NCBI GenBank assembly: GCA_021413905.1
Contig: JAIOPO010000001.1
Coordinates: 9,159-73,158 of the forward strand
DNA length: 64,000 nt
Direction: 5' to 3'
Source: Candidatus Nomurabacteria bacterium
Lineage (GTDB): Bacteria > Patescibacteriota > Minisyncoccia > Phycocordibacterales > UBA9973
In this document: positions 5,932 to 52,068 of the stretch, piece after piece
Layout: each line of letters begins with the position of its first letter
Numbering within the stretch: position 1 is the stretch's first letter
Notes under the pieces: generated by a model
Databases searched by the model: none
Seen by the model: the letters and a program-made list of their open reading frames with translations, nothing else
Told to the model about the DNA's origin: nothing
Translations under genes and position numbers: made by a program

Positions 5932-7512
<1,581 letters not shown>

Positions 7513-7759: not shown

Positions 7760-10351
7760 ATGCAAAAAAACAAAGCAACAACTGAAGGTAGCATTATCGT
7801 CAAAGGCGCACGAACGCACAATTTGAAAAATGTGACGGTGGAAATGCCTCGCGGGAAAATGATAGTTTTTACCGGTCTTTCAGGTTCCGGAAAAAGTTCA
7901 TTGGCTTTTGATACTATTTTTGCCGAGGGACAAAGACGATATGTGGAATCTCTTTCTTCTTATGCGCGACAATTTTTAAAACAAATGGCAAAGCCGGACG
8001 TGGATGAGATAGAAGGATTAAGTCCTGCGATTTCAATTGATCAAAAATCTAGATCAAACAATCCGCGTTCGACAGTGGCGACTATCACAGAGATTTATGA
8101 TTATCTTCGTGTTCTTTATGCGCGCGTGGGGCGTCCGCATTGTTTGACGTGCGGAGATGAAATAAAAAAACTTTCAAATGAAGAAATTATAAAATTCGTG
8201 ATGGAGAAAATTTCTAAACTTTCCGGTGGAAAAAAGAAAGTGATGGGCGTGGAATTCGACGATACTCCGATACAAATATTTGCTCCAATGGTGCGAGGCA
8301 GAAAAGGCGAATACTATCAATTGCTTTATGATTTGCTTGGCAAAGGATATACCAAGGTCCGCGTGGATGGCACGATGAAGATTTTACGTGAACGTATTGA
8401 TTTATCAAAAACAAAAAAACATGATATTGATGTCTTGGTTGATGAATTTTCTGCGCATGAATTTGCGGTGAAAGATATGAAAGATGTCGAACTGCGTTTA
8501 TCTGAATCAGTCGAGCGAGCATTGTTGGAATCAGACGGATTGATAAAAGTTTTAATAAATAAAGAAGAAACTTTATTATCTGCAAAATTTTCTTGCCCGA
8601 AAGACGGCTTTTCTTTTCCAGAAATAGAACCACGTCTTTTCTCTTTCAATTCTCCACACGGAGCTTGCCCTGAATGTCATGGACTTGGCACAAAACATAT
8701 GTTTGGCGAAGATACTTGTGATGAGTGTAAGGGTGCGAGACTTCGCCCAGAAGCGTTGAAAGTATTTTTATCTGACAAAGAAATCAGTATCGTGGATTTT
8801 ACCGCAATGTCTATCGAAGATGCAGTATTATTTTTTAATAAATTAAAATTAACAGCGCAAGAGCGTGAAATATCTGCAGTATTATTGAGGGAGATTTCTT
8901 CGCGTTTGGAATTTCTTTTAAATGTAGGTTTGGAATATTTATCGCTCGATAGACGAGCAAATACTTTATCCGGCGGAGAAGCTCAGAGAATTCGCTTGGC
9001 TTCACAACTCGGTTCACGCCTTGTCGGAGCATTGTATGTTTTAGATGAGCCAACAATTGGTTTACATCAGAGAGACAATGAAAGACTTATTAAAACGCTT
9101 ACGGATTTGCGTGATTTAGGTAATACTATAATAGTCGTGGAGCATGATGAGGATACCATTTACTCTTCGGATTTTATTGTAGACATTGGTCCAAAAGCCG
9201 GAGTGCACGGCGGGGAAATAATCGTTGCGGATTATTTGGATAAACTTTTAACCGCACCGAAAAATACTTCAAAGTCTAGAACACTCGCATATTTGAGAGA
9301 AGAAGCAAGAATAGAAATTCCGGAAAAAAGACGTGAAGCAGAAAAAGGTAGTATTAAAATAGTCGGTGGTAAAATTTTCAGTATTAAAAATTTAAATGCG
9401 GAAATACCGCTCGGCAGGTTGGTTTCTATCACCGGTGTTTCCGGCTCAGGTAAAAGTTCTTTTATGTATGAGATTTTACATAAGAATTTGCAAGCCAGAT
9501 TTGAAAGAAAATATCGTAGTGCACAGACTTTTAATTGCGCATCTTTTTCTGGAAGCGAATATTTACAACGTGCAGTATTAATAGACCAAAGTCCTATAGG
9601 CAGAACACCGAGATCAAATATTGCGACTTATACTGGAGCATTTACTTTCATTCGTGATTTATTCGCGGAGACAGAAGAAGCGCGTTTCAGAGGCTGGAAG
9701 TCAAATAGATTTTCTTTCAATGTAAAAGGTGGACGATGCGAAGCTTGCGAAGGTAATGGTGAAATAGCTGTGGAGATGCATTTTTTGCCGACAGTTTATG
9801 TGACTTGTGATGTCTGCAATGGAAAAAGATTCGATAAAGAAACTTTGAAAGTAAAATATAAAAAGAAAAATATTTATGAAGTTTTGCAAATGACCGTGGA
9901 GGAGGGCTTGAAATTCTTTGAAGATATTCCTGCTATTTCTGATAGATTGAATAGCTTGGCTGATGTTGGATTAACTTATGTAAAATTAGGACAAAGCGCA
10001 ACGACGCTTTCTGGCGGAGAAGCGCAACGCGTGAAAATCTCCAGCGAGCTTTTCCGTCCGTATTTGGAAAAGACGATTTATCTTTTAGACGAGCCGACTG
10101 TGGGCTTGCATTATGATGATGTTCAGAATTTGATAAATGTTTTGGAAAAATTGGTACACAAGGGGCATAGTGTGGTAGTCATTGAGCACAATATGGATTT
10201 AATAAAATCTTCTGATTATATTTTAGACTTTGGTCCTGAAGGGGGAGATAAAGGTGGTATGTTAATAGCCAAAGGTACACCGGAACAAGTGGCGAATAAT
10301 AATAAAAGTTTCACCGGACAGTATCTTAAAAAAGTTTTAAGGAAGAAATAA
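7760..10351 (+). CDS. uvrA: excinuclease ABC subunit A
   Basis: GLSGSGKSSLAFDTIFAEGQRRYVESLS, zinc-finger cysteines and two ABC modules. Confidence 0.95.
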   Translation: MQKNKATTEGSIIVKGARTHNLKNVTVEMPRGKMIVFTGLSGSGKSSLAFDTIFAEGQRRYVESLSSYARQFLKQMAKPDVDEIEGLSPAISIDQKSRSNNPRSTVATITEIYDYLRVLYARVGRPHCLTCGDEIKKLSNEEIIKFVMEKISKLSGGKKKVMGVEFDDTPIQIFAPMVRGRKGEYYQLLYDLLGKGYTKVRVDGTMKILRERIDLSKTKKHDIDVLVDEFSAHEFAVKDMKDVELRLSESVERALLESDGLIKVLINKEETLLSAKFSCPKDGFSFPEIEPRLFSFNSPHGACPECHGLGTKHMFGEDTCDECKGARLRPEALKVFLSDKEISIVDFTAMSIEDAVLFFNKLKLTAQEREISAVLLREISSRLEFLLNVGLEYLSLDRRANTLSGGEAQRIRLASQLGSRLVGALYVLDEPTIGLHQRDNERLIKTLTDLRDLGNTIIVVEHDEDTIYSSDFIVDIGPKAGVHGGEIIVADYLDKLLTAPKNTSKSRTLAYLREEARIEIPEKRREAEKGSIKIVGGKIFSIKNLNAEIPLGRLVSITGVSGSGKSSFMYEILHKNLQARFERKYRSAQTFNCASFSGSEYLQRAVLIDQSPIGRTPRSNIATYTGAFTFIRDLFAETEEARFRGWKSNRFSFNVKGGRCEACEGNGEIAVEMHFLPTVYVTCDVCNGKRFDKETLKVKYKKKNIYEVLQMTVEEGLKFFEDIPAISDRLNSLADVGLTYVKLGQSATTLSGGEAQRVKISSELFRPYLEKTIYLLDEPTVGLHYDDVQNLINVLEKLVHKGHSVVVIEHNMDLIKSSDYILDFGPEGGDKGGMLIAKGTPEQVANNNKSFTGQYLKKVLRKK

Positions 10352-10421
10352 GGGGAAGCTTGCCCTGTAGTGAGCTTTGCTCTACTGCGGGGTATTTGAA
10401 AAAAGTACTTAGAAAATAAAT

Positions 10422-11744
10422 ATGAAAAATTTAGATTTAAAAAAAAATAAAATTCCAGACAAATCAGGGGTTTATTTTTTTATGGGAGGTAAAAAAATCC
10501 TTTATATTGGCAAAGCCACATCTCTAAAAGACAGAGTAAAAAGCTACTTCCCCTCGACTACGCTCGGGGCAGGTCGGCTTTTGGATTCTCGCGGACCGTT
10601 GATTACAGATATGGTTACAAAAGCTACAAATATTAAATGGCAGGAAACTGACTCGGTTTTAGAAGCACTTATTTTAGAAACGAATTTGATAAAAAAACAT
10701 CAGCCATATTACAATACAAAAGAAAAAGATGATAAAAGTTTTAATTATGTTTGCATAACGAAAGAGGAGTTGCCCAAGGTTTTGATTGTCAGAGGTAGAG
10801 ATTTACAAAAGAAAAAGAAGAATTCTCCCGCCTTCGCCCTCGGAGACATAGGACAGGGAACCCACGGCTCCTTGAATTCTTCTGTTTCTTTTTCCAGTGT
10901 GTTCGGTCCTTTTCCAAACGGCGGGCAATTGAAAGAAGCTTTGAAAATAATTCGTAGAATATTTCCTTTCTTAGACGAAAAAAGTAAAAATCATTATGAA
11001 TTTTACAAGCAAATAAATCTAGTTCCAGAAAAAAAAGATTTGTTATTAAAAAATATTAAAAATATAAAACTCTTTTTCGAGGGTAAGAAAAAATCTATTT
11101 TAAAAAATCTTGAAAAAGAAATGAATGTGTATGCAAAAAATCACGAATTTGAAAAAGCAGGTGAAATAAAAAGACAGATTTTTGCATTGAAGCATATTAA
11201 TGACATATCCCTTATCAAGAACTTACCAGAGAAGAATTTTCCTGCCTTCGCCCTCGGAGACATAGGACAGGGAACCCACGGCTCCTTAAATTCTTCTCTG
11301 TTTAATTCTTTCCGCATAGAAGCATATGATATAGCTCATATGTCTGGCAAAAATATGGTGGGTGTGATGGTGGTATTGGAAAATGGTGAAGTGAATAAAA
11401 ATCAATACAGAAAATTTTTAATAAAAAATTACACAAGTTCAAATGATACTGGTGCATTGAGTGAAGTTTTGTCTCGTCGTTTGAAACATGCAGAATGGCA
11501 GTATCCAGATTTGATTGTGGTGGATGGTGGAACAGCTCAAAGGAATGTCGCACTTAAAATATTGAAAGAATTTAATTTAAAAATACCCGTGTCGGCAGTG
11601 GTAAAAGACGAAAAACATAAAGCGAAAATGATATTGTCCGCCGATTCTAAATTTAAAAAAGCAATTTTATTGGCAAATTCTGAGGCACATAGATTTGCTA
11701 TAAAATATCATAAAATTAAAAGAAATAAAGCTTTTTTGGGTTAA
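10422..11744 (+). CDS. uvrC: excinuclease ABC subunit C (short form; GIY-YIG and endonuclease domains, no C-terminal (HhH)2)
   Basis: GIY-YIG (GVYFF...ILYIGKA) and RIEAYDIAHMSG ... LIVVDGG ... EAHRFAI motifs. Confidence 0.85.
   Translation: MKNLDLKKNKIPDKSGVYFFMGGKKILYIGKATSLKDRVKSYFPSTTLGAGRLLDSRGPLITDMVTKATNIKWQETDSVLEALILETNLIKKHQPYYNTKEKDDKSFNYVCITKEELPKVLIVRGRDLQKKKKNSPAFALGDIGQGTHGSLNSSVSFSSVFGPFPNGGQLKEALKIIRRIFPFLDEKSKNHYEFYKQINLVPEKKDLLLKNIKNIKLFFEGKKKSILKNLEKEMNVYAKNHEFEKAGEIKRQIFALKHINDISLIKNLPEKNFPAFALGDIGQGTHGSLNSSLFNSFRIEAYDIAHMSGKNMVGVMVVLENGEVNKNQYRKFLIKNYTSSNDTGALSEVLSRRLKHAEWQYPDLIVVDGGTAQRNVALKILKEFNLKIPVSAVVKDEKHKAKMILSADSKFKKAILLANSEAHRFAIKYHKIKRNKAFLG
10816..10883. mobile_element. 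68-bp GC-rich MITE-like insertion with 9-bp terminal inverted repeats (agaagaatt / aattcttct), in frame inside uvrC (copy 1)
   Basis: Near-identical to copy 2 (3 mismatches). It encodes PAFALGDIGQGTHGSLNSS. GC content is far above the surrounding sequence. Confidence 0.6.
11231..11298. mobile_element. 68-bp GC-rich MITE-like insertion with 9-bp terminal inverted repeats, in frame inside uvrC (copy 2)
   Basis: Same element 415 bp downstream, same frame, same encoded peptide. Confidence 0.6.
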
Positions 11745-14697: not shown

Positions 14698-17160
14698 ATG
14701 GGATTTTTTAGTAAAATATTTGGAAATACAAGCTCTGGTTTTGTCAAAAATGCCAAAGAAATAATACTTAAAATAAATTCTTTCGAAGAAAGCTTATTAT
14801 CTTTTCAAAATGAAGATTTTCCAAGAAAAACAATGGAATTTAAGGAAAGACTTGAAAATGGTGAATCCTTAGAAGATATTTTACCCGAAGCCTTTGCTTT
14901 GGTTCGTGAAGCGTCTCGTAGGAATTTAGGTGAAAGACATTACGATGTTCAACTTGTTGGTGGTCTAGCATTACATAAAGGAAAAATAGCTGAAATGAAA
15001 ACAGGTGAAGGAAAGACTTTGGTGGCTACTTTGCCAGCGTATTTAAATGCATTGGCGGGCAAGGGTGTACATATTGTGACTGTAAATGATTATCTAGCTC
15101 GTCGTGATGCTGTGCTTATGGGGCAAGTTTATAATTTTTTAGGTTTAACTGTTGGAATTATTAATTCTCAAAATGTTTCTTATTTATATGATGCGAGTCA
15201 TACAGAATTAGATCAAGACCGTGATGGGATTGGTGAATTTAAAATTGTTTATGAATTTTTAAAACCTTGTTCAAGAAGAGATGCTTATAATGCGGATATT
15301 ACATATGGCACGAATCACGAATATGGTTTTGATTATTTGAGAGATAATTTAGCAACTTCTACGAACGGATTGGTTCAACGTGGACATTTTTTTGCTATTG
15401 TTGATGAAGTAGATTCTATTTTAATAGACGAAGCTCGAACACCGCTTATTATTTCTTCTCCTTCAGAAAATTCTGAAGACTTTTATATTCAATTTTGTGA
15501 AATTGCTAAGAAATTAAAAAAAGAAAAAGATTACAACGTAGATGAAAAACTCAGAGCCATTAGTCTTACTGATGAAGGTATTACAAAAGCTGAAAAATTG
15601 CTCGGTATACAAAATATTTATACTGAAAAGGGTATTAAGTATGTACATCATTTGGAAACTGCTGTAAAAGCGCAAGCTATTTTTGAAAAAGATAAAGATT
15701 ATGTTGTTAAAGATGGTGAAGTTATAATTGTTGATCCATTTACTGGTCGTTTACAGCCAGGTAGGCGTTGGTCTGAAGGTATACATCAAGCGATTGAAGC
15801 AAAAGAAGGTGTAAAAATAGAAAAAGAAACTCGTTCATCTGGCTCTATAACTTTTCAAAATTATTTTAGATTTTATAAAACTCTTTCAGGTATGACAGGT
15901 ACCGCAGAAACTTCCGCTGAAGAATTTTTGAAAGTTTATGGTTTGGATGTGATTGTTATTCCGACAAATAGACCAGTGTCTAGAATAGACAGACCGGACA
16001 TTATCTTTCAAACAGAAAAAGGAAAACTTCAAGCTATTGCTAGAAAAGTAAAAGAATTAAATATAAAAGGTCAGCCTGTGTTGATCGGTACTATATCTAT
16101 AGAGAAAAATGAACTTCTCTCAGTTTATTTAAAACAACAAGGAGTGCCTCATGTTATTTTGAATGCTAAAAATCATGAAAAAGAAGGAGAGATAATAGCG
16201 CAAGCTGGTAAAAGAGGTGCGGTCACAATTGCTACAAATATGGCTGGACGCGGTATAGATATCAAACTTGGTGGTAATCCAATGGTAAAAGAAGAATATG
16301 ATTTTGTGAAAAATGCAGGAGGGCTTTTTGTCTTGGGTACTGAGCGTCATGAGGCGCGCAGAATTGATAATCAATTACGAGGACGTTCTGGGCGTCAGGG
16401 TGACCCGGGCGAGACACAATTTTTCGTATCTCTTGAAGATGATTTGATGCGTATTTTCGGAGCAGATAGAATAAAAAATATGATGGGTAAATTTGGTATT
16501 CCCGAAGATCATCCTATTGAAAGTCGTTTTATTGGTCGCGCTTTGGAAAATGCTCAAGAAAAAATAGAAGGTTTTCATTTTGATTCGAGGAAACATACTT
16601 TGGAATACGACGATGTTATGAATCATCAAAGGCAAGCAGTATATGCTCGTCGTCAAAAAATGATGCAAGCTGACAAGACAGAAATAGAAGGATTGTTGAA
16701 TACTCTGATTACTTTAAAAGAAAATGCAGGAGAAATTATTGAAAATAAGAAAAAGAAATTAGGCGAAGAATCATTCATGGAAACTGTTCGCCGAATATCT
16801 CTGTATATTACTGATGCTCTTTGGATGGAACATTTGGAAGATATGGATTATTTGCGCTCATCTGTAAATTTGCGTGCTTATGGTCAACGTGAGCCAATTG
16901 TGGAATACAAAAAAGAAGGTTTGTTTATGTTTAAACAAATGGAAGAGAATTTCAAAATGCAAACTTTGTCTTTGATTGAAACTATAAATGTTGAAAATAT
17001 TGAGAATAATAAATCAGCAGATATTTCTGCAGATAATCAAATTATTTTAGAAAATAATCATGTTGAATCTGGAGAATTTGAAGAAGTAAAAGATACAGGA
17101 CGCAATGACCTTTGTCCTTGTGGTTCCGGTAAAAAATTCAAAAAATGCCATGGGAAGTAG
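14698..17160 (+). CDS. secA: preprotein translocase ATPase SecA
   Basis: DEAD-like motor motifs and a C-terminal zinc-binding CPCGSGKKFKKCHG. Confidence 0.95.
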   Translation: MGFFSKIFGNTSSGFVKNAKEIILKINSFEESLLSFQNEDFPRKTMEFKERLENGESLEDILPEAFALVREASRRNLGERHYDVQLVGGLALHKGKIAEMKTGEGKTLVATLPAYLNALAGKGVHIVTVNDYLARRDAVLMGQVYNFLGLTVGIINSQNVSYLYDASHTELDQDRDGIGEFKIVYEFLKPCSRRDAYNADITYGTNHEYGFDYLRDNLATSTNGLVQRGHFFAIVDEVDSILIDEARTPLIISSPSENSEDFYIQFCEIAKKLKKEKDYNVDEKLRAISLTDEGITKAEKLLGIQNIYTEKGIKYVHHLETAVKAQAIFEKDKDYVVKDGEVIIVDPFTGRLQPGRRWSEGIHQAIEAKEGVKIEKETRSSGSITFQNYFRFYKTLSGMTGTAETSAEEFLKVYGLDVIVIPTNRPVSRIDRPDIIFQTEKGKLQAIARKVKELNIKGQPVLIGTISIEKNELLSVYLKQQGVPHVILNAKNHEKEGEIIAQAGKRGAVTIATNMAGRGIDIKLGGNPMVKEEYDFVKNAGGLFVLGTERHEARRIDNQLRGRSGRQGDPGETQFFVSLEDDLMRIFGADRIKNMMGKFGIPEDHPIESRFIGRALENAQEKIEGFHFDSRKHTLEYDDVMNHQRQAVYARRQKMMQADKTEIEGLLNTLITLKENAGEIIENKKKKLGEESFMETVRRISLYITDALWMEHLEDMDYLRSSVNLRAYGQREPIVEYKKEGLFMFKQMEENFKMQTLSLIETINVENIENNKSADISADNQIILENNHVESGEFEEVKDTGRNDLCPCGSGKKFKKCHGK

Positions 17161-43545: not shown

Positions 43546-43564
43546 ATATATTGTTAGTAATTAT

Positions 43565-43625
43565 GGGCCATTAGCTTATCTGTAGCGCTTCGTGAGAGCA
43601 ACTACAAGAAAGTTGAATTTGGCTG
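43565..43625 (+). pseudogene. pseudo-tRNA fragment resembling the 5' half of tRNA-Ala
   Basis: GGGCCATTAGCTTATCTGTAGCGC matches GGGCCGTTAGCTCATCTGGTAGAGC of the adjacent tRNA-Ala. No T-arm follows. Confidence 0.5.
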
Positions 43626-43636
43626 AAATATAATAT

Positions 43637-43709
43637 GGGCCGTTAGCTCATCTGGTAGAGCACCTCATTTGCAATGAGGGGGTGGCAGGTTCGAGTCCTG
43701 TACGGTCCA
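43637..43709 (+). tRNA. tRNA-Ala (anticodon TGC)
   Basis: G3:U70 pair, anticodon loop TTTGCAA, GGTTCGAGTCC T-arm. Confidence 0.85.
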
Positions 43710-43757
43710 CATTGGCAGAATTTCTTTAAGTTTTGTCATATTTTTATAAAAAAATAT

Positions 43758-43829
43758 TCGGGAGTAGCTCAGCGGTAGAGCGATCGCCTGTTAAGCGATT
43801 GGTCGTAGGTTCGATCCCTACCTCCCGAG
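43758..43829 (+). tRNA. tRNA-Asn (anticodon GTT)
   Basis: U1:A72 pair, anticodon loop CTGTTAA, GGTTCGATCCC T-arm, discriminator G. Confidence 0.8.
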
Positions 43830-45383
43830 CAATGACTTGTACTTAGGTGAGTTTTCAGTATTAAACACTTGTCCAGCAAGTGTTTTTTGCTGTTCGTAGG
43901 AGTCATTTAGCTTTGGAATCCATTCAAGCAGATATTTGCACGCTAAATTATAATTCGGCTTTATTTCATAAGCATTTTGTGTGAAGTTCGTAAATAATTG
44001 AGAGAACAATAATCTTTTTTCGTCCACTTCTGCTTTGTTGTAAATTTGGCTTGCTTTAAAAGCGAGGTCGTGAATTATTACACGAAGTTCTTGATAGTCG
44101 TCGCTTTTATTTACAACTTTATCGAGAGTAGACTCTAAGGCAGATTCTTCAATTTTACATTCAGCTATTTTTCTTTCACAAAACTCGCGTGGCACTTCTT
44201 TGTTTATTGTCGCTTCAAAGTATTTATCTTTTTCTTTTCTGATTTTTAATAATAGCCCATTTAGTCTTTGAATTTCTGTCTCCCTTTCTTTTATCTGCTC
44301 GGCATTTTCTTCTAAAATAATACTTTCAATCCATTTAAGCACAGCTTCGTTCTTAGGGGCTATATTTAGAAAAACGGGCATTATTTGTTCTTCGACTTTA
44401 TCTTGCCTAACATAGGTCTTTTTAGGGCAATGGCGTGATTTTAAATGGTTATTACAGTGCCCATACCATTTTTCTTTTTGTAATTCCCAACTCAAAACAC
44501 CCCCGCAACCATCGCAGAAAATTTTGCTTTTAAATAGGGAATTGTGTTTAGTTGATAAGTGAGTTTTACCTCTTCTTTTTAAGATGGATTGTGCTTTTTC
44601 AAATAGGTCCTTGCTAATCAATGGTTCGTGTATGGCAGGATATATTTGGCCTTTCCATCTCATTTTTCCATAGTAGAATGGGTCCTGAAGTAATTCGTAA
44701 ATTCTGCTTTGCAAAATCTTTTTTCCATTTCTTGACCTAAGTCCAATTTTATACATTTCATCTTCTAGTCCAGTGAGTGAATAATTTCCCGTAGCGTATA
44801 GTTCAAACATTTTTTTAATATGGGGAGCTGTTTCTTCTTCAATGATATGTATTTTATGTCCTTTGTCCCCGATAGTTTTATATCCAGTGGGTGGTTTTTG
44901 TGGAAGTCCGCCTTGAGCTAATTTTTCTTTTTGTCCTTTACGAACTTCTTCGGAAAGGTTGTTTGTATAGAATCTAGCAATTGCAACTTTCATATCCCAC
45001 ACAAGATTTTCGTGGGCTCTGGTATTTTGACTAACGATAAAATTTTCTTTAACGAAATGGACCTCGTTATTTTTTTCTTCATAAACCCAATCGTTAATTA
45101 TGGATGCATCTTTTAAGTTGCGGGTTAATCGGTCAATTTTTTCTGCCAGTATTAGATTTACTTTGTTTTTCTTAATGAATTGAAGAATCTCATTAAATTT
45201 TTTCCTTGCTTGTTTTCCACTTGCCGATTCTGAAATTTTATAAACTTTTACAACATTAAAGTTATTTTTTACCGCATACTCCGTGAGAAGTTTTTCTTGA
45301 GCATCCAGCGAATACCCTGTGTCTTCTTGTTCTTTACTGGAAACTCTACAAATAATGACTGCTTTTATTGTGTTATTTTTCAT
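43818..45383 (-). CDS. large serine recombinase (phage-type serine integrase); last 4 codons overlap the tRNA-Asn 3' end
   Basis: AVIICRVSSKEQ...SLDAQ catalytic resolvase domain, a recombinase domain, and a C...C zinc-ribbon region. Confidence 0.85.
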   Translation of the reverse strand: MKNNTIKAVIICRVSSKEQEDTGYSLDAQEKLLTEYAVKNNFNVVKVYKISESASGKQARKKFNEILQFIKKNKVNLILAEKIDRLTRNLKDASIINDWVYEEKNNEVHFVKENFIVSQNTRAHENLVWDMKVAIARFYTNNLSEEVRKGQKEKLAQGGLPQKPPTGYKTIGDKGHKIHIIEEETAPHIKKMFELYATGNYSLTGLEDEMYKIGLRSRNGKKILQSRIYELLQDPFYYGKMRWKGQIYPAIHEPLISKDLFEKAQSILKRRGKTHLSTKHNSLFKSKIFCDGCGGVLSWELQKEKWYGHCNNHLKSRHCPKKTYVRQDKVEEQIMPVFLNIAPKNEAVLKWIESIILEENAEQIKERETEIQRLNGLLLKIRKEKDKYFEATINKEVPREFCERKIAECKIEESALESTLDKVVNKSDDYQELRVIIHDLAFKASQIYNKAEVDEKRLLFSQLFTNFTQNAYEIKPNYNLACKYLLEWIPKLNDSYEQQKTLAGQVFNTENSPKYKSLLGR

Positions 45384-45448
45384 ATATTTTTATTTTATTT
45401 TAATTTAATTTCTAATAATTATAACATATACCAATTCAGTTATTTTTT

Positions 45449-45652
45449 TTACCCATCGGGGACATTAGAAGATTCAATTTCTTTTTTGTTTACACGTTGG
45501 TGAATTTTAAATAACGTTAAATAATAATTAGCGACCCCGTTGGCGATTTCTCTAACTTGTTCTTCCGTGAAATTCTCAAAACCAGCACAACCTTTGTGTA
45601 GCTCAACAAATTTATTTATTTGTTCTGGTTTGAGTTCCATTAGTTTAACCAC
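45449..45652 (-). CDS. hypothetical small protein within the element
   Basis: ORF only. Confidence 0.35.
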   Translation of the reverse strand: MVKLMELKPEQINKFVELHKGCAGFENFTEEQVREIANGVANYYLTLFKIHQRVNKKEIESSNVPDG

Positions 45653-46191
45653 GAAGGTTTGTTAGCTCGCATTGCTTGCACGAAAGGCGAGTCCTCTTCT
45701 TTTAAAGAAGAATTTTCTCTTTCTTTATTTGATTTAGTTAGTTGAATTCCCGTATCCTTTTCGGTACTATCTCCCTTACTGTTTAGATACTGTTCATTTT
45801 CCTTTTGGTCATAAGAGTATTCTTTTTTGACCGTATACATTTGGATACTGTCCTTTTTAGTATTTAAAGGGTCCATTAAGAAATATATATTTGGTTGTCT
45901 TTTTTTATTACGAAGAACTAATATCAATCCAAGTTCTTCAATTATTTTTATATATTTACTAACTGTATTTCTTTTTCCAATTCCAGAGAATTTCATTATT
46001 GTTGGGTATGAAGGAAAGCAGGATTGTGTTTTACTATTAGCGTGCCTAGCTAAAGTGCAATAGATGGCTATTCCTGAAGATTTTAACTTCGGTCCGTATT
46101 TTTCTATTATTTCGTTATCAACCCAAAATCGAGTCTTCTTTAAAGAAGGTCTTATGTGTTTTGGTATGACTAAATTATTTGGCAGTTTCAT
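45640..46191 (-). CDS. replication-associated winged-HTH protein (HTH_36 / DnaD-N-like)
   Basis: GIAIYCTLARHANSKTQSCFPSYPTIMKFSGIGKRNTVSKYIKIIEELGLI. Confidence 0.5.
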   Translation of the reverse strand: MKLPNNLVIPKHIRPSLKKTRFWVDNEIIEKYGPKLKSSGIAIYCTLARHANSKTQSCFPSYPTIMKFSGIGKRNTVSKYIKIIEELGLILVLRNKKRQPNIYFLMDPLNTKKDSIQMYTVKKEYSYDQKENEQYLNSKGDSTEKDTGIQLTKSNKERENSSLKEEDSPFVQAMRANKPSWLN

Positions 46192-46226
46192 AATTTTTAT
46201 TCATATAATTTAATATAGGCGAGTCG

Positions 46227-46490
46227 TTAGTTTTTTAATCTGCTTTTAATTTCTCTGATAGCGTTCCAATAATTTTTTGGTTCAACTTGAAGTAAGCCAG
46301 CCCAAAAGTTAGTTATTGTTTTTTCCAGTTCTTTTGTTTTATTAAAAACCATTTTGACTTTCGGGTACTCTTTTGGGTCCCTGTCAAAGGCAATGATGGG
46401 GAAATTTAGAGAAACTAGACAGCTAACTAAGCACATATCACTAAGAGATACTTTTTCTTCTACATTTAGATATTTAAAATCACTATTCAT
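46227..46490 (-). CDS. hypothetical protein within the element
   Basis: ORF only. Confidence 0.35.
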   Translation of the reverse strand: MNSDFKYLNVEEKVSLSDMCLVSCLVSLNFPIIAFDRDPKEYPKVKMVFNKTKELEKTITNFWAGLLQVEPKNYWNAIREIKSRLKN

Positions 46491-46628
46491 TTAATTTAAT
46501 AAAATTATTTTTAATAAATGCCTTCCTTAGACAAAAGGAGGACTCTATATAAAGGCATATGTGGTCATACGACAAAAAATAAAAAAAGCCCTTTGAAAAT
46601 AGGCTTTTTAATAGAAAGAATTTACTTT

Positions 46629-47675
46629 CTATTGGTTTTTTAATTTCGATATTTTATTTTTACTTTGCTCCTCCTTTATTTTACGTATTTGATTAAAATC
46701 TTTAACATTAAAGAGCCACCTTCCTTTTGGCTGAACCCTTGTAAGCTTTATTTTACTTGACCAATACGCAGGTATAAGTCCTTTCTCTCTATACCGTCTT
46801 AATGTTTTATCGCTTATACCAGTGGCATCTGCTGTCTGTTGAGTAAGAAAATATTTTTCCCCGTTTACGTCTTCGATTAAATCGAGAGAATCAGTTTCAT
46901 TTGCCTTGTGTGATGTGGTCGGATAGTTATTATTCTCATTGTTTTCATAATCAAGTATAGCTAAATCATCATCATTATATCCAGAAAATACTTTTTTATT
47001 GTAGCGTATTTTTATATTTATTTCTCTCATTACCTTTTCACGTATATAATAAAAAAGTTTTTGTCCCGAATTTGATTTTTTTGCTAAATTATTAATAGTG
47101 TCCAGTAGGTCTTTTTTTGCATCTGCCGTTGTTTTTATTTTTCTATTTTTTTGTTTCCTCCCTGAATCTCTATAGCCAAGATTCCTTTGTATAAACCAAT
47201 CATTTAAACATAACTGTATTTCTGTTTTTACCAGCAATTTTAAATACTTATCAGAATATTTGGTAAATTTATTATTATCTAGATTTTCTTTTAAAGAAAG
47301 ATATTTTTTTAGTTTTTTTGTTGATGGTGAGACGCTTCCTATCCAAATTTCTGCCAAAAAGTCTAAAAGTAAATCATTGTCTTTTTTAGAAAGATTATAT
47401 TTTTTATATATTGATTTTACTATTTCGCTTGGCTGAGGTTTTTTGTTGTCCCAATTTACAGATGGGAACAATAAATTTGTTGCTATTATTCCATATTTGG
47501 AAACTTTAATTAAAATTTTTTTATTCAGCTTTTTTGCTTTTCTTTTTTCTTTAATCAAGCTCTTTAGACTCTTGATTTTTTTTAGAATAGGTCTAAGAGT
47601 TTTTTTATCAATTAAAGGCAGTCCTAAGTAAAATATTGAATCATCAAAAATAGGAAATTTTTGTTTTTTATTCAT
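46629..47675 (-). CDS. lysine-rich protein with a C-terminal excisionase-family HTH (HTH_17)
   Basis: LTQQTADATGISDKTLRRYREKGLIPAYW...GRWLFNVKDF. Confidence 0.5.
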   Translation of the reverse strand: MNKKQKFPIFDDSIFYLGLPLIDKKTLRPILKKIKSLKSLIKEKRKAKKLNKKILIKVSKYGIIATNLLFPSVNWDNKKPQPSEIVKSIYKKYNLSKKDNDLLLDFLAEIWIGSVSPSTKKLKKYLSLKENLDNNKFTKYSDKYLKLLVKTEIQLCLNDWFIQRNLGYRDSGRKQKNRKIKTTADAKKDLLDTINNLAKKSNSGQKLFYYIREKVMREINIKIRYNKKVFSGYNDDDLAILDYENNENNNYPTTSHKANETDSLDLIEDVNGEKYFLTQQTADATGISDKTLRRYREKGLIPAYWSSKIKLTRVQPKGRWLFNVKDFNQIRKIKEEQSKNKISKLKNQ

Positions 47676-47975
47676 ATAATATAATCTGGGTAACTTACAT
47701 TAGATGTGCATCTAATTGAAACACTAACGATGTATATGTGAACATTGCACTGGCACATTTTACCATTTTATTGTAGACTTAAAAAGTCAATTAAATATGG
47801 ACCTAACCCTTGAATTAACATTTAAGGCACGGTCAACAGTAATCCGCTCAGGAGCATAAAACCCATCATTGGGGTACCTGAGCGGTCGTATTGGGAAACT
47901 GATACGGATGGCGAAAGCTATCACCTAGTGGTGGGCTTTTTGCTACCAATTTTATTAGATTAAGATAAAAAATTT

Positions 47976-48650
47976 ATGGAAGAAAATAAAACATCAGGTT
48001 CAAATCCTGAACAAAAAAATTGGATTAGTCGTCATCCTATGATTACAACAATTATTGTTTTAGGGATGTCTTTAATGATAGGTGGATTAAGTAATCAAGG
48101 AAATAGTATTCAGTCTGATGAAACAAATAATACTTCAATATCTACAACACCTAATATTCAGCCTGACATAAATCTTCCAGAAAAAACCATCACATCTAAA
48201 GTTAAAAATGAATCCGTTTCTACGCAACAATCAATTACTGAAACAAATAATACAATTTATGCTAAAAAATTTTATAACGTTATTTTATTAATTGAGTCTG
48301 GAAATTCAGATGCTCAATCTGGAATATCTGCATTTAGCACTAGCACCCCAGACGCTCTATTTGACTTACGACAAGCTCAAGCAGAGTTTTCTAAAGCACA
48401 GTTAGAAATGCAATCATTGCAAGTTAATGTGCCTGAAAAGTTTATAGATATAAATAGATTAATGAATGAGGCTATAAATAATTACACTTCTGGTATGAAT
48501 ATATTAATTCCAGCCTTGGAAGATGAGAATAATCCTGATTCACTTAATCAAGCTAAAAGTGCTTATACTTATTTTAATAAGGCAGTTATGCTTTTTAGTC
48601 AGGCAGAACTTGCCATAAAGCAATTAAACGCTAAAGAGGGTATTTATTAG
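47976..48650 (+). CDS. hypothetical membrane-anchored protein
   Basis: ORF with a transmembrane helix at residues ~22-40. Confidence 0.4.
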   Translation: MEENKTSGSNPEQKNWISRHPMITTIIVLGMSLMIGGLSNQGNSIQSDETNNTSISTTPNIQPDINLPEKTITSKVKNESVSTQQSITETNNTIYAKKFYNVILLIESGNSDAQSGISAFSTSTPDALFDLRQAQAEFSKAQLEMQSLQVNVPEKFIDINRLMNEAINNYTSGMNILIPALEDENNPDSLNQAKSAYTYFNKAVMLFSQAELAIKQLNAKEGIY

Positions 48651-48669
48651 TAAAAAGTAAATAAGAAAT

Positions 48670-49155
48670 TTATCTTCCAATTCTATTTTTACATCCAAGG
48701 CAATAGTTTCCATACTCTTGAGGAAATTTTCTTTCAAGGTATTTCCAAGCCAAATTAGGGTCCGTCTGAATAGCTCTAGCAACAGTAAGCCTAGCGAGCA
48801 TCCCAAGGTTCAGTTTCCACCCCTGTTTCTGCTCTAAAAACTCAGGATTATTGTGCTGATAGTTATATAGCGTTTGAAGTGAAATACCAGCGAAAACACA
48901 GGCTTCTCGGTCGCTAGCATCTACTAGGTAAGCCATCCTTAGTTTTTGGAGTGTGTCATTTTTCATAACTGTGGGTCTGCCACCCTTTTGACCCTTAGTT
49001 TTCTCTATTACGTTGGCTGGGCGAGGGTTGTGTCTAGGTAAGGTTTTCAAAGCAAGACAACCGTCAAAAGGAAGAGGTAGTTCTTCCATCTCTAGCTCAA
49101 TGGTTTCTTGTGGAAATGCCTCTATTGGGATTGTGTCGAATTCTAATTCTTCCAT
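48670..49155 (-). CDS. phage terminase small-subunit-like HTH protein
   Basis: GGRPT...LQKLRMAYLVDASDREACVFAGISLQTLYNY...AWKYLERKFPQEYG resembles the terminase small-subunit HTH family. Confidence 0.45.
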   Translation of the reverse strand: MEELEFDTIPIEAFPQETIELEMEELPLPFDGCLALKTLPRHNPRPANVIEKTKGQKGGRPTVMKNDTLQKLRMAYLVDASDREACVFAGISLQTLYNYQHNNPEFLEQKQGWKLNLGMLARLTVARAIQTDPNLAWKYLERKFPQEYGNYCLGCKNRIGR

Positions 49156-49193
49156 AGTTATATTATAGTTGTTTTTTAGTTTTTTTATCTTTT

Positions 49194-50129
49194 ATGATTT
49201 ACATTTTTGTAAATTTTAGTAGAATGAAGAACATGGCTTTAATACCCCCACATTATTTAAATTCAGTAGTATCAATTGAGGTAGAAAGGAAAAATGACAA
49301 GGACGAAATACAAAAAGTTTCTATTGCTACTGGTTTTCTTGTAGGTAAACTTACTGGAAAAAGTAATGAAAAAGGACCTTTATATAATCTTTTTCTTGTA
49401 ACGAATAGACATGTTTTTCAAAATGAAAAAACAAATCAACTTTTAAAAGAAGCATTTTTTCGTTTTAATACAACTGACAATAAAGGGCATTACTTTAAGG
49501 TAAATCTTTTAAGAACAGACAACACTCACATATGGTCAATGCACAGTGATGAAAAAGTTGACTTAGCGGTACTGCCAATAAATGCTAAAGCAATTAATGA
49601 TGCAAAAATTAACTATCATTTTTTTTCTGATACTGACTTGTTTTATGCAAGAGATTTTAAGTCAAAAAATATACATACAGGAGACAGCCTGTTTGTTTTA
49701 GGTTTTCCTATGAGTATAAATGGTAAGGCAAAAAATTTTGTTATTGTAAGACAAGGAATAATTGCTCGTGTTGATGAAGAAGTTTTAAATGAACGTTTTT
49801 ACTATATTGATGCTTCAGCATATCCTGGAAACAGTGGAGGACCTGTTATTGTTAAACCAGAAATAGTTTCAATCCAAGGTACAACAAGTAATAATTCAGC
49901 TGGTCTTATTGGGGTTATAAGTTCTGGAGAAACTTATTCTGATGTTGCAGTAAGTAGTCAAACTGGTGAAGCACGAGTAATTTTTACTGAACAGACTGGA
50001 CTTGTTAGGATTGTACCTATTGAACTAATATATGAAATTATTGATACAATTACAAAACCCACAACGTTATTGCAAGAGGCTAAGGTTGAAGATGTTAGTT
50101 CTTCAGCAAAGGAAGAAATAAAAAATTAG
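49194..50129 (+). CDS. trypsin-like (S1) serine peptidase, apparently cytoplasmic (start may be 49224)
   Basis: LVTNRHV (His), a downstream Asp, and PGNSGGPVIV (Ser). No signal peptide. Confidence 0.65.
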   Translation: MIYIFVNFSRMKNMALIPPHYLNSVVSIEVERKNDKDEIQKVSIATGFLVGKLTGKSNEKGPLYNLFLVTNRHVFQNEKTNQLLKEAFFRFNTTDNKGHYFKVNLLRTDNTHIWSMHSDEKVDLAVLPINAKAINDAKINYHFFSDTDLFYARDFKSKNIHTGDSLFVLGFPMSINGKAKNFVIVRQGIIARVDEEVLNERFYYIDASAYPGNSGGPVIVKPEIVSIQGTTSNNSAGLIGVISSGETYSDVAVSSQTGEARVIFTEQTGLVRIVPIELIYEIIDTITKPTTLLQEAKVEDVSSSAKEEIKN

Positions 50130-50172
50130 TATATATATTTATATAGTTTACCATTTATGTTATAATTGCTCC

Positions 50173-50361
50173 ATGAGTGATAGACAACAAACTAGTAATG
50201 GTCAATTTAAAAAGAGACGAGGCGATACTCGTATTGGGACCATTGAAAAAGAATATGGTGTTGACTTTGGGGTGCGTTCTGACACAAAGCTAGCTACTTA
50301 TCTTGAGGAAAATGGGGTCCCTTCTCTTTCTAAGGCATTAAAGAAGTTAAACGACAAATAA
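50173..50361 (+). CDS. hypothetical small protein (translationally coupled to the next gene)
   Basis: 62-aa ORF. Its stop abuts the next start. Confidence 0.35.
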   Translation: MSDRQQTSNGQFKKRRGDTRIGTIEKEYGVDFGVRSDTKLATYLEENGVPSLSKALKKLNDK

Positions 50362-50362
50362 T

Positions 50363-50896
50363 ATGTCTTCGCATAGTCCAGATGTATTACACGCAAACAT
50401 TGAATGGCATATTGAATTGATTGCTATTCAGATTAGTCACGCAAAAAAAGTAAAGGGAAGAGCTAGAAGTGGTTATTACAAAATGGCTACCATTCTTGGA
50501 GCTACTATTGTTGAAGGTCTAGTGCACGCAATTTTACAAAACAAATTAGGAATAGATGGAGTTATATTTACAGGTAAAAAGATATCTTATGATTGTTGTG
50601 AATTACCAAAGAGATTTTCAGAAAAAGAGCAACTTGCTATATGTAAAAGAAAAGATGAAAAAATAGAACTTAAAAAGAATCCAGATTTTGCAGTTCTAAA
50701 TAACACTTGTTTAAAAGAAAGATTATTCTCAAAAGAAGTTTTTAATAGAGTTGAAGATGTGCGTAAAACAAGAAACAAAATTCATATTCAAGGTTTAGAC
50801 CACATTGACCGTAGTTATACAAATAATAATGTTGAAAAAATTGCAAAAACTGTTAATAGACTGGTAGATTTATATAATAGGTCTCATAATAATTAA
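50363..50896 (+). CDS. hypothetical protein with a HEPN-like R-x(4-6)-H motif
   Basis: VEDVRKTRNKIHIQG near the C-terminus. Confidence 0.35.
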   Translation: MSSHSPDVLHANIEWHIELIAIQISHAKKVKGRARSGYYKMATILGATIVEGLVHAILQNKLGIDGVIFTGKKISYDCCELPKRFSEKEQLAICKRKDEKIELKKNPDFAVLNNTCLKERLFSKEVFNRVEDVRKTRNKIHIQGLDHIDRSYTNNNVEKIAKTVNRLVDLYNRSHNN

Positions 50897-50899
50897 TTT

Positions 50900-51643
50900 A
50901 TGCCAAATAAAATTATACAAACTGAAATTGATAAAATTCTCGGTGAATTGGCTTTTTACAATGAACCTGAACTTCTAAAAGAAGAGTATAGGAAGTTTTT
51001 GAAGGTTGGTAAAAATTTTAATAAAGAAAAAAGTAAAAAATATTCTCAGTCATTAGCTAGTATAAATTGGTTTATAAAAAAAGTAGCTAAATATAAAATA
51101 TACTTTTCAGAGTTTTATCCATGTTCAACTGATAATATTCAAAAACATGAGGCTCTAGAACACCATATTCATGCGTATCTGGAAGATATAATTACTGTTA
51201 AAACTAAAACAACTAATTATATTGGTGAACTAAAAAATGACCTCAAGCAAGTTGTTGAAAATAAAAAAGAAATTAGTAACTCCCTTGATTGGCTTAAAGA
51301 ACAAATATATAAAACTTTTGAAGGTATATCAACGCAAAGAGACCAACATAGACATAGAGGTTTTAAGTTTGTAGATGGAGATATAACTAATGCGGAAATG
51401 GCTCACATAATGTTAGGGAAGGATTCTCTTTTCAAGGGTCATTTTACTGATTATGCTATTGAAAAATTTAAGGCACAAAAAGAGGAATCGTTTGAAAAAG
51501 CAAAAAAAAGTTGGTTGGAAAATACTTTAAAAAATTATGACCAAATTGAAGGACTAGCAAATGAAATGGTTAAAAGAACGAAACCATTTTTGTATCAATA
51601 TTTAGACATAGAACCATTAGATACACTATATCAAAGCCATTAA
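50900..51643 (+). CDS. hypothetical protein (last gene of the cargo operon)
   Basis: 247-aa ORF, 4 bp after the previous stop. Followed by a hairpin and T-run at ~51715-51745. Confidence 0.4.
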   Translation: MPNKIIQTEIDKILGELAFYNEPELLKEEYRKFLKVGKNFNKEKSKKYSQSLASINWFIKKVAKYKIYFSEFYPCSTDNIQKHEALEHHIHAYLEDIITVKTKTTNYIGELKNDLKQVVENKKEISNSLDWLKEQIYKTFEGISTQRDQHRHRGFKFVDGDITNAEMAHIMLGKDSLFKGHFTDYAIEKFKAQKEESFEKAKKSWLENTLKNYDQIEGLANEMVKRTKPFLYQYLDIEPLDTLYQSH

Positions 51644-51942
51644 TTGCTTCATTTGTTGCAAAGAAACAGACGGATAAGGAAAAATCTCTTCCCATTTGGT
51701 TGTTCGTAGAGTATACTTCCATTCGAGCCAAGTAGTACAAACGTCGCCGAAAGCGGCGTTTTGTGTTTGTATTGCTGTTTTTGTGAAAGTTAATACCTAT
51801 AATGAGTAAAATATGATAAATAATATAGAAATTACTTATTAGAGTCTAAAGAGGATCTTGCAAAATTTAAAGAATTTGTTTTTTTAAAGATATAAAGCTA
51901 TAATACATATGTATCAATATTATCAAATAATTTTAAAATAAA

Positions 51943-52068
51943 ATGGCAAAAAGAGGAACAACACTAAGTATTAGACCAAAATCAAGACGTTCTCATAAAA
52001 CAAAAAAGAGACTTGCTACCAAGAAAACAATGCTCGCTAGCAAATCTACTGGAAAGAAAAGAGGTTAA
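51943..52068 (+). CDS. rpmH: 50S ribosomal protein bL34
   Basis: MAKRGTTLSIRPKSRRSHKTKKRLATKKTMLASKSTGKKRG aligns to the bL34 consensus (KR.RSHGFR.RMATK.GR.VL..RR.KGRKRL). Confidence 0.6.
   Translation: MAKRGTTLSIRPKSRRSHKTKKRLATKKTMLASKSTGKKRG

Follow-up and report, generated by a model that had tools for sequence, protein, structure and literature searches.

Is the region at the 3' end of a tRNA-Asn gene in a Candidatus Nomurabacteria genome occupied by a mobile element and, if so, of what kind is it? The locus lies in a 64-kb stretch of contig JAIOPO010000001.1 (hereafter the window, to which all coordinates refer), which belongs to a metagenome-assembled genome of this lineage of the Candidate Phyla Radiation (CPR; Patescibacteria). 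The original prediction, made before any database search, was an ~8-kb discrete integrative element with a serine integrase, possibly a phage satellite resembling phage-inducible chromosomal islands (PICIs). Analysis of the junctions, of the integrase gene and of related loci makes it very probable that an element of 7,898 bp (43831–51728), abutting the 3' terminus of tRNA-Asn, is integrated here, that the attP site of its serine integrase lies within the open reading frame (ORF) of the integrase itself, that the severed tail of this ORF is located at the far junction, and that the element belongs to a family of related elements.

The integrase gene is severed by integration

The integrase, 521 aa long in its prophage form, displays the domain order of large serine recombinases, with all three domains scoring above the Pfam cut-offs: Resolvase (PF00239; E = 1.4e-24, 87.2 bits), Recombinase (PF07508; 2.9e-16, 60 bits) and Zn_ribbon_recom (PF13408; 3.1e-07, 31.1 bits). 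Its PHROGs match is phrog_95, integrase (2e-77), and the motif CRVSSKEQ is invariant across 40 homologues. The attachment sites, short dyads without long repeats, are also those of this recombinase group. The integrase ORF overlaps the 3' end of tRNA-Asn by 13 nt, comprising three codons, the stop codon and one base; the overlap itself had been recognized correctly but was counted as four codons plus stop. Residues 1–518, which hold every conserved domain, are encoded by the element, whereas the C-terminal LGR and the stop codon are read from the antisense strand of the tRNA acceptor/T stem.

Homologues of the integrase (1,389 in the database at E ≤ 1e-20) form two C-terminal classes. Members of the short class (~521 aa) terminate with ...LLGR or ...LLRG, or continue into peptides such as GDRDSNP, which are translations of antisense tRNA sequence. 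Members of the long class (~552 aa) carry a conserved tail, LLAW-KxxLRTTNWxxxFPFPSVSLQQIKxLL. A hidden Markov model (HMM) was built from 16 long-form tails and searched against the 1,761 six-frame segments of the window. A single match was obtained, at 51629–51730 on the minus strand, reading WLEWKYTLRTTKWEEIFPYPSVSLQQMKQLMALI up to a stop codon (E = 5.7e-17, the next best segment having E = 1.5). A weak echo of the tRNA 3' segment at ~51705–51745 had been proposed to mark the far end of the element; this is indeed where attR is found, with the sequence CGAGC and the in-frame integrase tail.

When the body and the tail are joined across CGAGC, a 551-aa integrase is obtained, which aligns without gaps over residues 1–551 with seven unsplit homologues at 67–80% identity (best P0030, 80%). 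Integration at CGAGC severed the integrase gene 33 codons short of its end and, as reconstructed from the two junctions, attP lies within the integrase coding sequence. The tail is intact and in frame even though, in the integrated state, translation of the integrase does not reach it, which points either to selective time spent in the excised form or to a recent integration. Exchange of the C terminus suggests a regulatory switch built into the integrase, whereby loss of the tail upon integration would modulate the activity or stability of the protein.

Attachment sites and the tRNA-Asn target

The two junctions of the element have 5 nt, CGAGC, in common, and no long direct repeat was found at the flanks. 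Rejoining of the junctions yields both the 551-aa integrase and a tRNA-Asn gene followed by CCA and a terminator; therefore, the element corresponds to 43831–51728, and position 43758, initially taken as its start, belongs to the tRNA. Imperfect inverted repeats had been suggested as a feature to look for, and the reconstructed attP is one: AGTACAAGTCATT[GCTCG]AATGGAAGTATACT, the arms to be compared being AGTACAAGTCATT and AGTATACTTCCATT (reverse complement). An imperfect dyad such as this predicted one is as expected for the site of a serine integrase. The predicted attP junction contains ...AAGTCATTGCTCGAATGGAAG... (in a longer read, TACTGAAAACTCACCTAAGTACAAGTCATTGCTCGAATGGAAGTATACTCTACGAACAACCAAAT) and the predicted attB junction ...CCTCCCGAGCCAAGTAGTAC... 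(in a longer read, the reverse complement of CGCCGCTTTCGGCGACGTTTGTACTACTTGGCTCGGGAGGTAGGGATCGAACCTACGACCAATCG).

In the reconstructed attB, the tRNA-Asn gene ends with ...CTCCCGAG-CCA, and a strong terminator hairpin begins 10 nt further on. The unoccupied tRNA-Asn genes of two relatives (L023 and L024) have the same layout, with a hairpin downstream. A terminator scan places the original tRNA-Asn hairpin of the window at 51739–51761, past the far junction. The hairpin at 43863–43885, equivalents of which are found 3' of the tRNA in integrated relatives, appears to be a substitute terminator for tRNA-Asn during the integrated state. Since strand exchange takes place at the final bases of the tRNA, the mature tRNA sequence remains intact; only the encoded CCA and the trailer are swapped, and the element does not regenerate a tRNA terminus as had been supposed.

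A genome scan based on fmt retrieved 26 Nomurabacteria or Paceibacteria loci (48–67% identity), in which the order hisS-def-fmt is conserved. None of the 26 has a clean empty site, rpmH being located at a variable distance and tRNA-Asn not adjoining rpmH. Nor are the island genes present at any of them around hisS-def-fmt, so that the conserved synteny which would have spoken against mobility was not observed. In L023, L024, L026 and the pair L142/L143, the latter carrying the closest related element (integrase 79% identical), tRNA-Asn is found 1–3 kb beyond fmt with its 3' end facing away from fmt. The tRNA and the element of the window are oriented the other way round with respect to fmt, from which rpmH separates them. 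Comparison of these gene orders suggests an inversion or rearrangement at the window locus.

Several observations were made in the immediate surroundings of the target. In the Logan assembly, made independently from the same sample, contigs (L001–L003) end at 43793, inside tRNA-Asn and 25 nt beyond the integrase stop codon, and at 43672, inside tRNA-Ala. These breaks could be due to repeats or to a branch of the assembly graph between occupied and empty sites. Upstream of tRNA-Ala (43637–43710), 72 nt ahead, there is a 21-nt copy (43562–43582, 90% identical) of the 5' end of this tRNA, which could be a tRNA pseudogene or a scar of an earlier integration. At two other loci (L145 and L149), tRNA-Ala is flanked by a different serine integrase, 26–28% identical.

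A family of tRNA-targeting elements in CPR bacteria

We compared 84 related loci, 80 of them from at least 484 relatives confirmed by integrase alignment in a metagenome scan and four from a scan of a viral collection. The integrase ORF is complete in 75 loci. In 49 of these a convergent tRNA gene is located at its end: the ORF extends 12–66 nt into the tRNA gene or, at two loci, stops 26 and 97 nt before it. The targets of the 49 are tRNA-Asn (23), tRNA-Gln (15), tRNA-Lys (3), tRNA-Tyr (3), tRNA-Ser (2), tRNA-Asp (2) and tRNA-Leu (1). A tail-coding segment is present 6.5–11.1 kb upstream on the same strand in 17 of the 49, and in the rest the available DNA may be too short to include it. Eight loci encode an unsplit integrase without a tRNA gene. 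Of 14 relatives inspected, 12 have a core of 4–8 nt common to attL and attR, located at the discriminator/CCA position of the tRNA. Judged by these shared features, the window element is a member of a large family of CPR elements of 6.5–11.1 kb that are predicted to use various tRNA genes as targets.

The 16 relatives that could be delimited have a common layout, in which a backbone operon encoding a ~240-aa DNA-binding protein, a DUF5659 protein, a primase or initiator, small ORFs and the integrase points to the integrase, and a divergent variable operon extends to the tail end. Among their 145 proteins, as classified with Pfam and PHROGs, the most frequent Pfam family is DUF5659 (9), followed by HTH_17 (5), DnaG-type primases (4) and replication initiators; genes of the restriction-modification and defence type are those for methylases, Mrr, GmrSD, ResIII, AAA_15/21, a trypsin-like protease and a protein kinase. 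Terminase, capsid and portal families were not among the top families. By its gene content the window element conforms to this family plan.

Not all observations fit the above reading of the element, and those that weigh against it should be listed together. The shared core is only 5 nt long. The collections searched contain neither an excised circle nor an empty site nor an attP-form protein of this very element, the exact attP junction sequence had no match in IMG/VR, and look-ups with exact proteins found the integrase and both flanking host proteins in one sample only, with no population variant devoid of the island. Among contigs of 7–12 kb carrying family integrases none has terminal overlaps, and none of the contigs with an unsplit integrase proved to be circular. 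In addition, unsplit integrases also occur in contigs of 150–508 kb, inside larger mobile regions, and therefore the long form cannot generally be equated with a free element.

Individual relatives deserve separate mention. The pairs L201/L203 and L191/L192 have (near-)identical integrase genes that diverge at the tRNA junction; they were considered as excised and integrated states of one element, which was rejected, as the available DNA of the integrated partner does not include the sequence downstream of the long form. In L148 the integrase body (10001–11581, plus strand) and the tail (15550–15648, minus strand) are on opposite strands ~4 kb apart, which is the product expected from inversion between inverted att sites. 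Matches to group I introns were found in L192 (11598–11819, minus strand), directly past the integrase stop codon, and in L157 (16185–16409, plus strand); the target in L192 is probably an intron-containing CPR tRNA gene, hence missed by ARAGORN. L225–L227, from several samples, encode an unsplit 557-aa integrase (10001–11674) in a larger mobile or defence region with TrwB-like, OLD/AAA_15, N6_Mtase, ArdC and Mrr genes.

Gene content of the element

The features of the element and its flanks are compiled in Table 1. The gene order proposed originally (int, a small ORF, the HTH_36 replication protein, a second small ORF, the 348-aa helix-turn-helix (HTH) protein, the terS-like gene and a four-gene operon) is the one observed, and the gene for ribosomal protein rpmH does resume past the element, with its start at 51943.

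Table 1. Coordinates of the element, its genes and its attachment sites in the window.
Feature	Position	Strand	Evidence or remark
tRNA-Asn(GTT), integration target	43758–43830	+	ARAGORN; Rfam tRNA, 72 bits
attL core CGAGC, the last five bases of tRNA-Asn	43826–43830		
Element-supplied terminator-like hairpin and T-run	43863–43885	+	33 nt past the tRNA, antisense inside the integrase ORF
Large serine integrase, prophage form, 521 aa	43818–45383	-	Resolvase, Recombinase, Zn_ribbon_recom
67-aa ORF (63 aa in the public assembly)	45449–45652	-	directly upstream of int
Replication initiator, 183 aa, HTH_36	45640–46191	-	PF13730, 2.4e-14; phrog_270, replication initiation protein, 1.6e-13
DUF5659 protein, 87 aa, family backbone gene	46227–46490	-	PF18903, 8.4e-06
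348-aa protein with C-terminal HTH_17/MerR-type (excisionase/AlpA-type) domain	46629–47675	-	PF12728, 1e-06, residues 278–329; phrog_66
Perfect 7-2-7 palindrome TTAGATG-TG-CATCTAA	47700–47715	.	125-nt divergent promoter region, between the backbone operon and the LOOT RNA gene
LOOT RNA (RF03000; 47800–47922) plus 3' extension	47800–47943	+	divergent control region; heads the accessory side
Predicted membrane-anchored protein, 224 aa, accessory	47976–48650	+	ORF
Orphan TerS-family protein, 161 aa	48670–49155	-	phrog_4102, 'terminase small subunit', 3.3e-16
Cargo operon: trypsin-like protease (311 aa), then ORFs of 62, 177 and 247 aa	49194–51643	+	
Severed tail of the integrase gene: 32 codons (EWKYTLRTTKWEEIFPYPSVSLQQMKQLMALI) and stop	51626–51724	-	tail HMM
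attR core CGAGC	51724–51728		
Displaced host sequence: remainder of the encoded CCA, trailer, original tRNA-Asn terminator	51729–51761	+	terminator scan, attB reconstruction

Among the backbone genes, the 67-aa ORF has no family match in Pfam or PHROGs, and tblastn detects homologues upstream of int in ~33 of the 84 related loci; it is a candidate recombination directionality factor (RDF) or accessory protein. The 183-aa initiator additionally matches DnaD-like and O-like PHROGs. The 348-aa protein, encoded by the first gene of the backbone operon, scores 29.3 bits for HTH_17 against a cut-off of 27, the MerR match being sub-threshold, and is a candidate regulator or RDF. It had been proposed for comparison with primases; no primase relationship was found, and outside HTH_17 it is an ORFan, two whole-database searches having retrieved no homologue other than the protein itself. 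Its positional counterparts in the relatives belong to an unrelated ~240-aa family, the C-terminal domain of which looks winged-helix-like as judged by eye.

The backbone and accessory sides are separated by a divergent gap of 300 nt, and the palindrome within it is a possible operator. The repeats seen in searches for iterons or tandem repeats were AT-rich and of low complexity, and a 29-nt 'repeat' (D1) was discarded, being the start-codon context common to three genes. In G+C composition, no contrast between the element and the host was detected.

On the accessory side, no significant family match was obtained for the 224-aa membrane protein (Pfam, PHROGs, PADLOC). The 311-aa protease of the cargo operon matches Trypsin_2 (PF13365, 1.2e-14), the PADLOC candidate defence gene PDC-S45 (7.8e-26) and phrog_7688 (2.8e-27), and the 62-, 177- and 247-aa ORFs have no matches. 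As had been noted from the sequence, structural genes are lacking: no island protein has a capsid, portal, large terminase (TerL), tail or lysis match in Pfam, PHROGs or PADLOC. A relaxase or conjugation gene is not present in the island either.

Elsewhere in the window, a complete 16S rRNA gene is located at 5933–7502 (plus strand), whereas a 23S rRNA gene was not found in the 64 kb, the two being unlinked. Unlinked rRNA genes are common in CPR genomes.

LOOT RNA in the divergent control region

The LOOT RNA of the element matches the Rfam model over positions 1–121 of 121, with 79 bits against a gathering score of 46.4, and has the same helices and GNRA loops. Sixteen copies were detected in 14 of 27 related loci scanned (for example, L144 3407–3531, L161 6142–6261 and L195 4632–4752), mostly immediately ahead of the cargo operon and in the orientation opposite to that of int; in most of them the ATG of the next gene is ~25–45 nt downstream. 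No LOOT RNA match was obtained in 146 kb of host-only Nomurabacteria loci or in 142 kb of phages of the TerS family. Catalogued in Rfam solely as a small RNA, it has a genomic home here: the divergent control region of those CPR elements whose serine integrases target tRNA genes.

A 3' pseudoknot not included in the Rfam model is formed by pairing of 47926–47934 with the loop of the central hairpin (47862–47870), and a conserved U-tract follows. In an alignment of 17 sequences this helix is 94.6% paired, compared with 78.6% in shuffles, none of 500 shuffles reaching the observed value. The helix was taken from the window sequence, which biases the slid-partner control in its favour; unbiased evidence comes from compensatory changes in 6 of 9 pairs and from RNAalifold, which predicts the same helix independently. 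As a LOOT terminator, a local hairpin did no better than shuffles. The RNA might control the cargo region, as a terminating leader or as a riboregulator, or it might act in trans as an RNA of the immunity type.

Second LOOT copies were seen outside the delimited element in L161 (362–484) and in L176 (15674–15801), near another serine recombinase and tRNA-Ala in the latter, which indicates neighbouring or tandem elements of a like kind.

An orphan gene of the small terminase family

Comparison of the 161-aa protein with small terminase subunits (TerS), as proposed originally, returned the phrog_4102 match listed in Table 1. Homologues are encoded at 80 IMG/VR loci. Of the 73 loci with enough downstream DNA, 69 have a co-directional ORF of 380 aa or more no further than 900 nt downstream. 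In 8 of 10 sampled cases this ORF has a Pfam TerL domain (Terminase_3, Terminase_6 or GpA type), and a portal-sized ORF is next. From its sequence relatives, the 161-aa protein can be assigned to a true phage TerS family. It retains the HTH and the helical core, at 45–56% identity to phage TerS, and has a 58-residue acidic N-terminal extension. In the AlphaFold2 model, residues 61–140 have a block-mean predicted local distance difference test score (pLDDT) of 78–97; the best match of the model in BFVD has E = 2e-6, and several matches are annotated as small terminase. No Pfam match was found, and a profile search of PDB sequences was empty.

Three observations argue against phage-mediated transfer. 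The protein lacks the C-terminal segment of 30–60 residues present in its phage homologues. Foldseek comparison of the model to the PDB yielded nothing at E < 0.5, Sf6 gp1 ranking seventh with a TM score of 0.32–0.38. Finally, no terS homologue is present at any of the 84 related integrase loci. In TerS proteins the C-terminal segment usually contacts TerL.

Judged by this absence and by its location on the opposite strand within the variable region, terS seems to have been acquired by this particular element. The sole close homologue of the 161-aa protein (56% identity, with the same N-terminal extension and CxxC end) is encoded at 1876–2301 of a 3.4-kb contig, L228, which also holds the 3' end of a gene for a tyrosine integrase (1–276), 1.6 kb away. 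In both the contig and the island the terS-like gene is followed by a convergent gene for a membrane-anchored protein, the two membrane proteins having no sequence similarity. The two genes may represent a shortened TerS variant typical of integrative elements rather than of phages, which would fit a satellite or a decoy.

Comparison with known elements

PICIs are recognized by five core components, with serine and tyrosine integrases being exchangeable in that scheme; their median size is 9.5 kb, and more than 99.9% of those detected are from Proteobacteria or Firmicutes (PMC10085698). The element resembles PICIs in its size of ~8 kb, in having an integrase, an AlpA/MerR-type HTH, a replication gene, a TerS homologue and accessory/defence genes, and in lacking structural and lysis genes. 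When set against the five components, it has an integrase, a regulator of the alpA/merR/stl kind (by predicted role) and a small terminase. In place of the primase-replicase of PICIs there is the 183-aa HTH_36 initiator, a functional analogue with no primase or helicase domain. A capsid-morphogenesis gene is lacking, as it also is in many accepted PICIs (type B). Further differences from PICIs are the missing C-terminal segment of TerS, the lack of conservation of TerS among the relatives of the element, and a host from the CPR. As far as tested, its components are not homologous to the PICI profiles.

The PICMIs, minimalist satellites of Vibrionaceae, are modelled with a regulator of PF12728 and accept a serine-type integrase (PF00239/PF07508); they encode a DUF3987/DUF5906 primase, integrate beside fis, have no terS, and carry iolg/icg beside int (PMC10803314). 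Similar to PICMIs, the element has a minimal gene set, a small gene tight to int (the 67-aa ORF), no capsid remodelling and defence cargo. It differs in its HTH_36 initiator, tRNA 3' end target and TerS homologue, and does not qualify as a PICMI. Packaging of concatemers in full-size heads, as with PICMIs, would be the obvious model for an element of 8 kb. The element is an integrative element with a serine integrase and not a member of the PICI or the PICMI family.

The small prophage-like element phiRv1 also has a serine integrase, in a host of a different phylum. Its excisionase is an HTH_17-type Xis acting with the serine integrase; phiRv1 targets a repetitive element and not a tRNA gene, its attP is not known to lie inside int, and it is not known to carry a LOOT RNA. 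The phiRv1-type mycobacterial elements are grouped with PICIs by SatelliteFinder (PMC10085698).

Overlap of attP with the integrase gene is known from tyrosine recombinases. According to PMC4383910, citing Tojo et al. 1996, the attP of Mx8 is located inside the gene for Int, and a tRNA gene is the target; splitting is characteristic of the SSV-type integrases, 'so far restricted to archaea' (PMC7253208). The element shares with both an integrase ORF across attP, a tRNA gene target, and an integrase altered or split by integration, but employs a large serine recombinase. As in Mx8, only the C-terminal end is exchanged and the prophage form retains the catalytic domains. Integration of SSV-type elements, in contrast, leaves two inactive halves; here, the crossover is at the tRNA 3' terminus, the core is 5 nt long and no segment of the tRNA is duplicated. 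An attP-spanning ORF with exchange of the C terminus is a convergent solution in serine integrases, known earlier for the tyrosine integrases of Mx8 and SSV. In 2015 only integrases of the tyrosine family were known to target tRNA genes (PMC4383910), and in 2020 14 of 297 serine integrase cases were in t(m)RNA genes, described as "not reported previously", with a call for experimental proof (PMC7192596). Our literature search, the coverage of which was incomplete, returned no description of this integrase family or of serine integrases in Patescibacteria.

How might the element persist and spread?

Were the region a fixed part of the chromosome, with immobile genes and with the tRNA overlap and the far echo arising by chance, the lack of an empty site, the non-syntenic relatives and the occurrence of the genome in one sample only would be accounted for. 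We consider this extremely improbable, given the tail match at the predicted place, strand and frame (E = 5.7e-17), the fusion of integrase and tRNA at seven tRNA species in dozens of unrelated contigs, and the absence of the island genes from all 26 related loci around hisS-def-fmt. Decay of a temperate phage following deletion of its structural genes, the alternative named in the original prediction, is very improbable as well. A phage-type integrase, a phage-like initiator, a TerS-family gene and a G+C content equal to that of the host would agree with it, but all ORFs are intact, as are both att sites and the untranslated, in-frame tail from which the integrase can be reconstituted. Remnants of capsid, portal, tail or lysis genes were found neither in the island nor among the top families of its relatives. 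Furthermore, 17 independently integrated relatives are natively 6.5–11.1 kb long, with the same backbone and no structural genes; therefore, the small size is native and not due to decay.

The mobile element that we favour would, upon excision, need a directionality factor, for which the small ORF beside int or the HTH_17 protein may serve, and the excised circle would replicate via its own initiator. As to its spread from cell to cell, two lifestyles have to be compared. A phage-independent, plasmid-like defence island, moving by transformation or another route and using TerS as an HTH regulator or as a decoy, which would block packaging by binding phage pac DNA or by poisoning the TerS rings of phages, has in our estimate nearly an even chance of being correct. 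The family cargo is mostly of the restriction-modification and defence type (methyltransferases, Mrr, GmrSD, ResIII, AAA_15/21, kinase), the operon neighbouring terS matches PDC-S45, terS itself is in the variable region rather than in the backbone, and the 161-aa protein combines the conserved core with the loss of the C-terminal segment and the gain of the acidic extension. The anti-phage role is, however, suggested by gene content, a transfer route is missing here too, with no relaxase or conjugation gene, and a small integrative replicon with a TerS gene but no other packaging gene is what classically marks a satellite. A PICI-like satellite would be induced by a helper phage to excise and replicate, its own TerS steering the TerL of the helper to package satellite DNA; we regard this as a tentative possibility. 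It draws on the genuine TerS family, whose homologues lie directly upstream of TerL in phage contigs, on the orphan state of terS, with no TerL, portal, capsid or tail gene, and on the defence cargo typical of satellites. The integrase, the AlpA/MerR-type HTH, the replication gene and terS represent four of the five PICI core functions (PMC10085698), and the closest terS-like homologue, with 56% identity and the same unusual ends, is beside a tyrosine integrase fragment in a small contig. Conversely, terS is accessory-like, on the opposite strand in the cargo region, absent from all 84 relatives and from the top families of the 16 delimited ones; the C-terminal 30–60 aa are missing, as are a capsid-size gene and a pri-rep homologue; and no helper phage, virion-derived copy, or packaged or excised form was found, the element not being in IMG/VR. 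Of the PICI-like satellite proposed originally, the TerS family and the parts have held up, and the lifestyle is no more than plausible, terS being the only gene of the hijacking type. Were the satellite reading correct, the TerS homologue would divert a pac-type helper phage and concatemers of the element would fill full-size heads, a route that we consider possible but doubtful.

Implications

The finding is firmer on the side of recombination, that is, for the self-splitting integrase and for LOOT RNA as a frequent component of the backbone, than on the less certain side of the satellite. Taken jointly, the data might be read as replicative islands distributed across the CPR, in which serine integrases act at the extreme 3' end of tRNA genes, loss of the tail is an integration-dependent switch, LOOT RNA with its pseudoknotted terminator is a riboregulator heading the defence cargo, and the window member, having captured a shortened TerS, is the first satellite candidate of Patescibacteria or an island interfering with packaging; that all of this holds together is rather unlikely. 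The clade, for which attL, attR, attP and attB can be read from sequence, provides candidate pairs of integrases and att sites for genome engineering, which are of relevance for CPR bacteria, where few or no genetic tools exist. LOOT RNA, until now an orphan, acquires a genomic context and an extended structure. Use of TerS for packaging would extend phage satellites to the Candidate Phyla Radiation, whereas a TerS decoy would represent a new kind of defence cargo.

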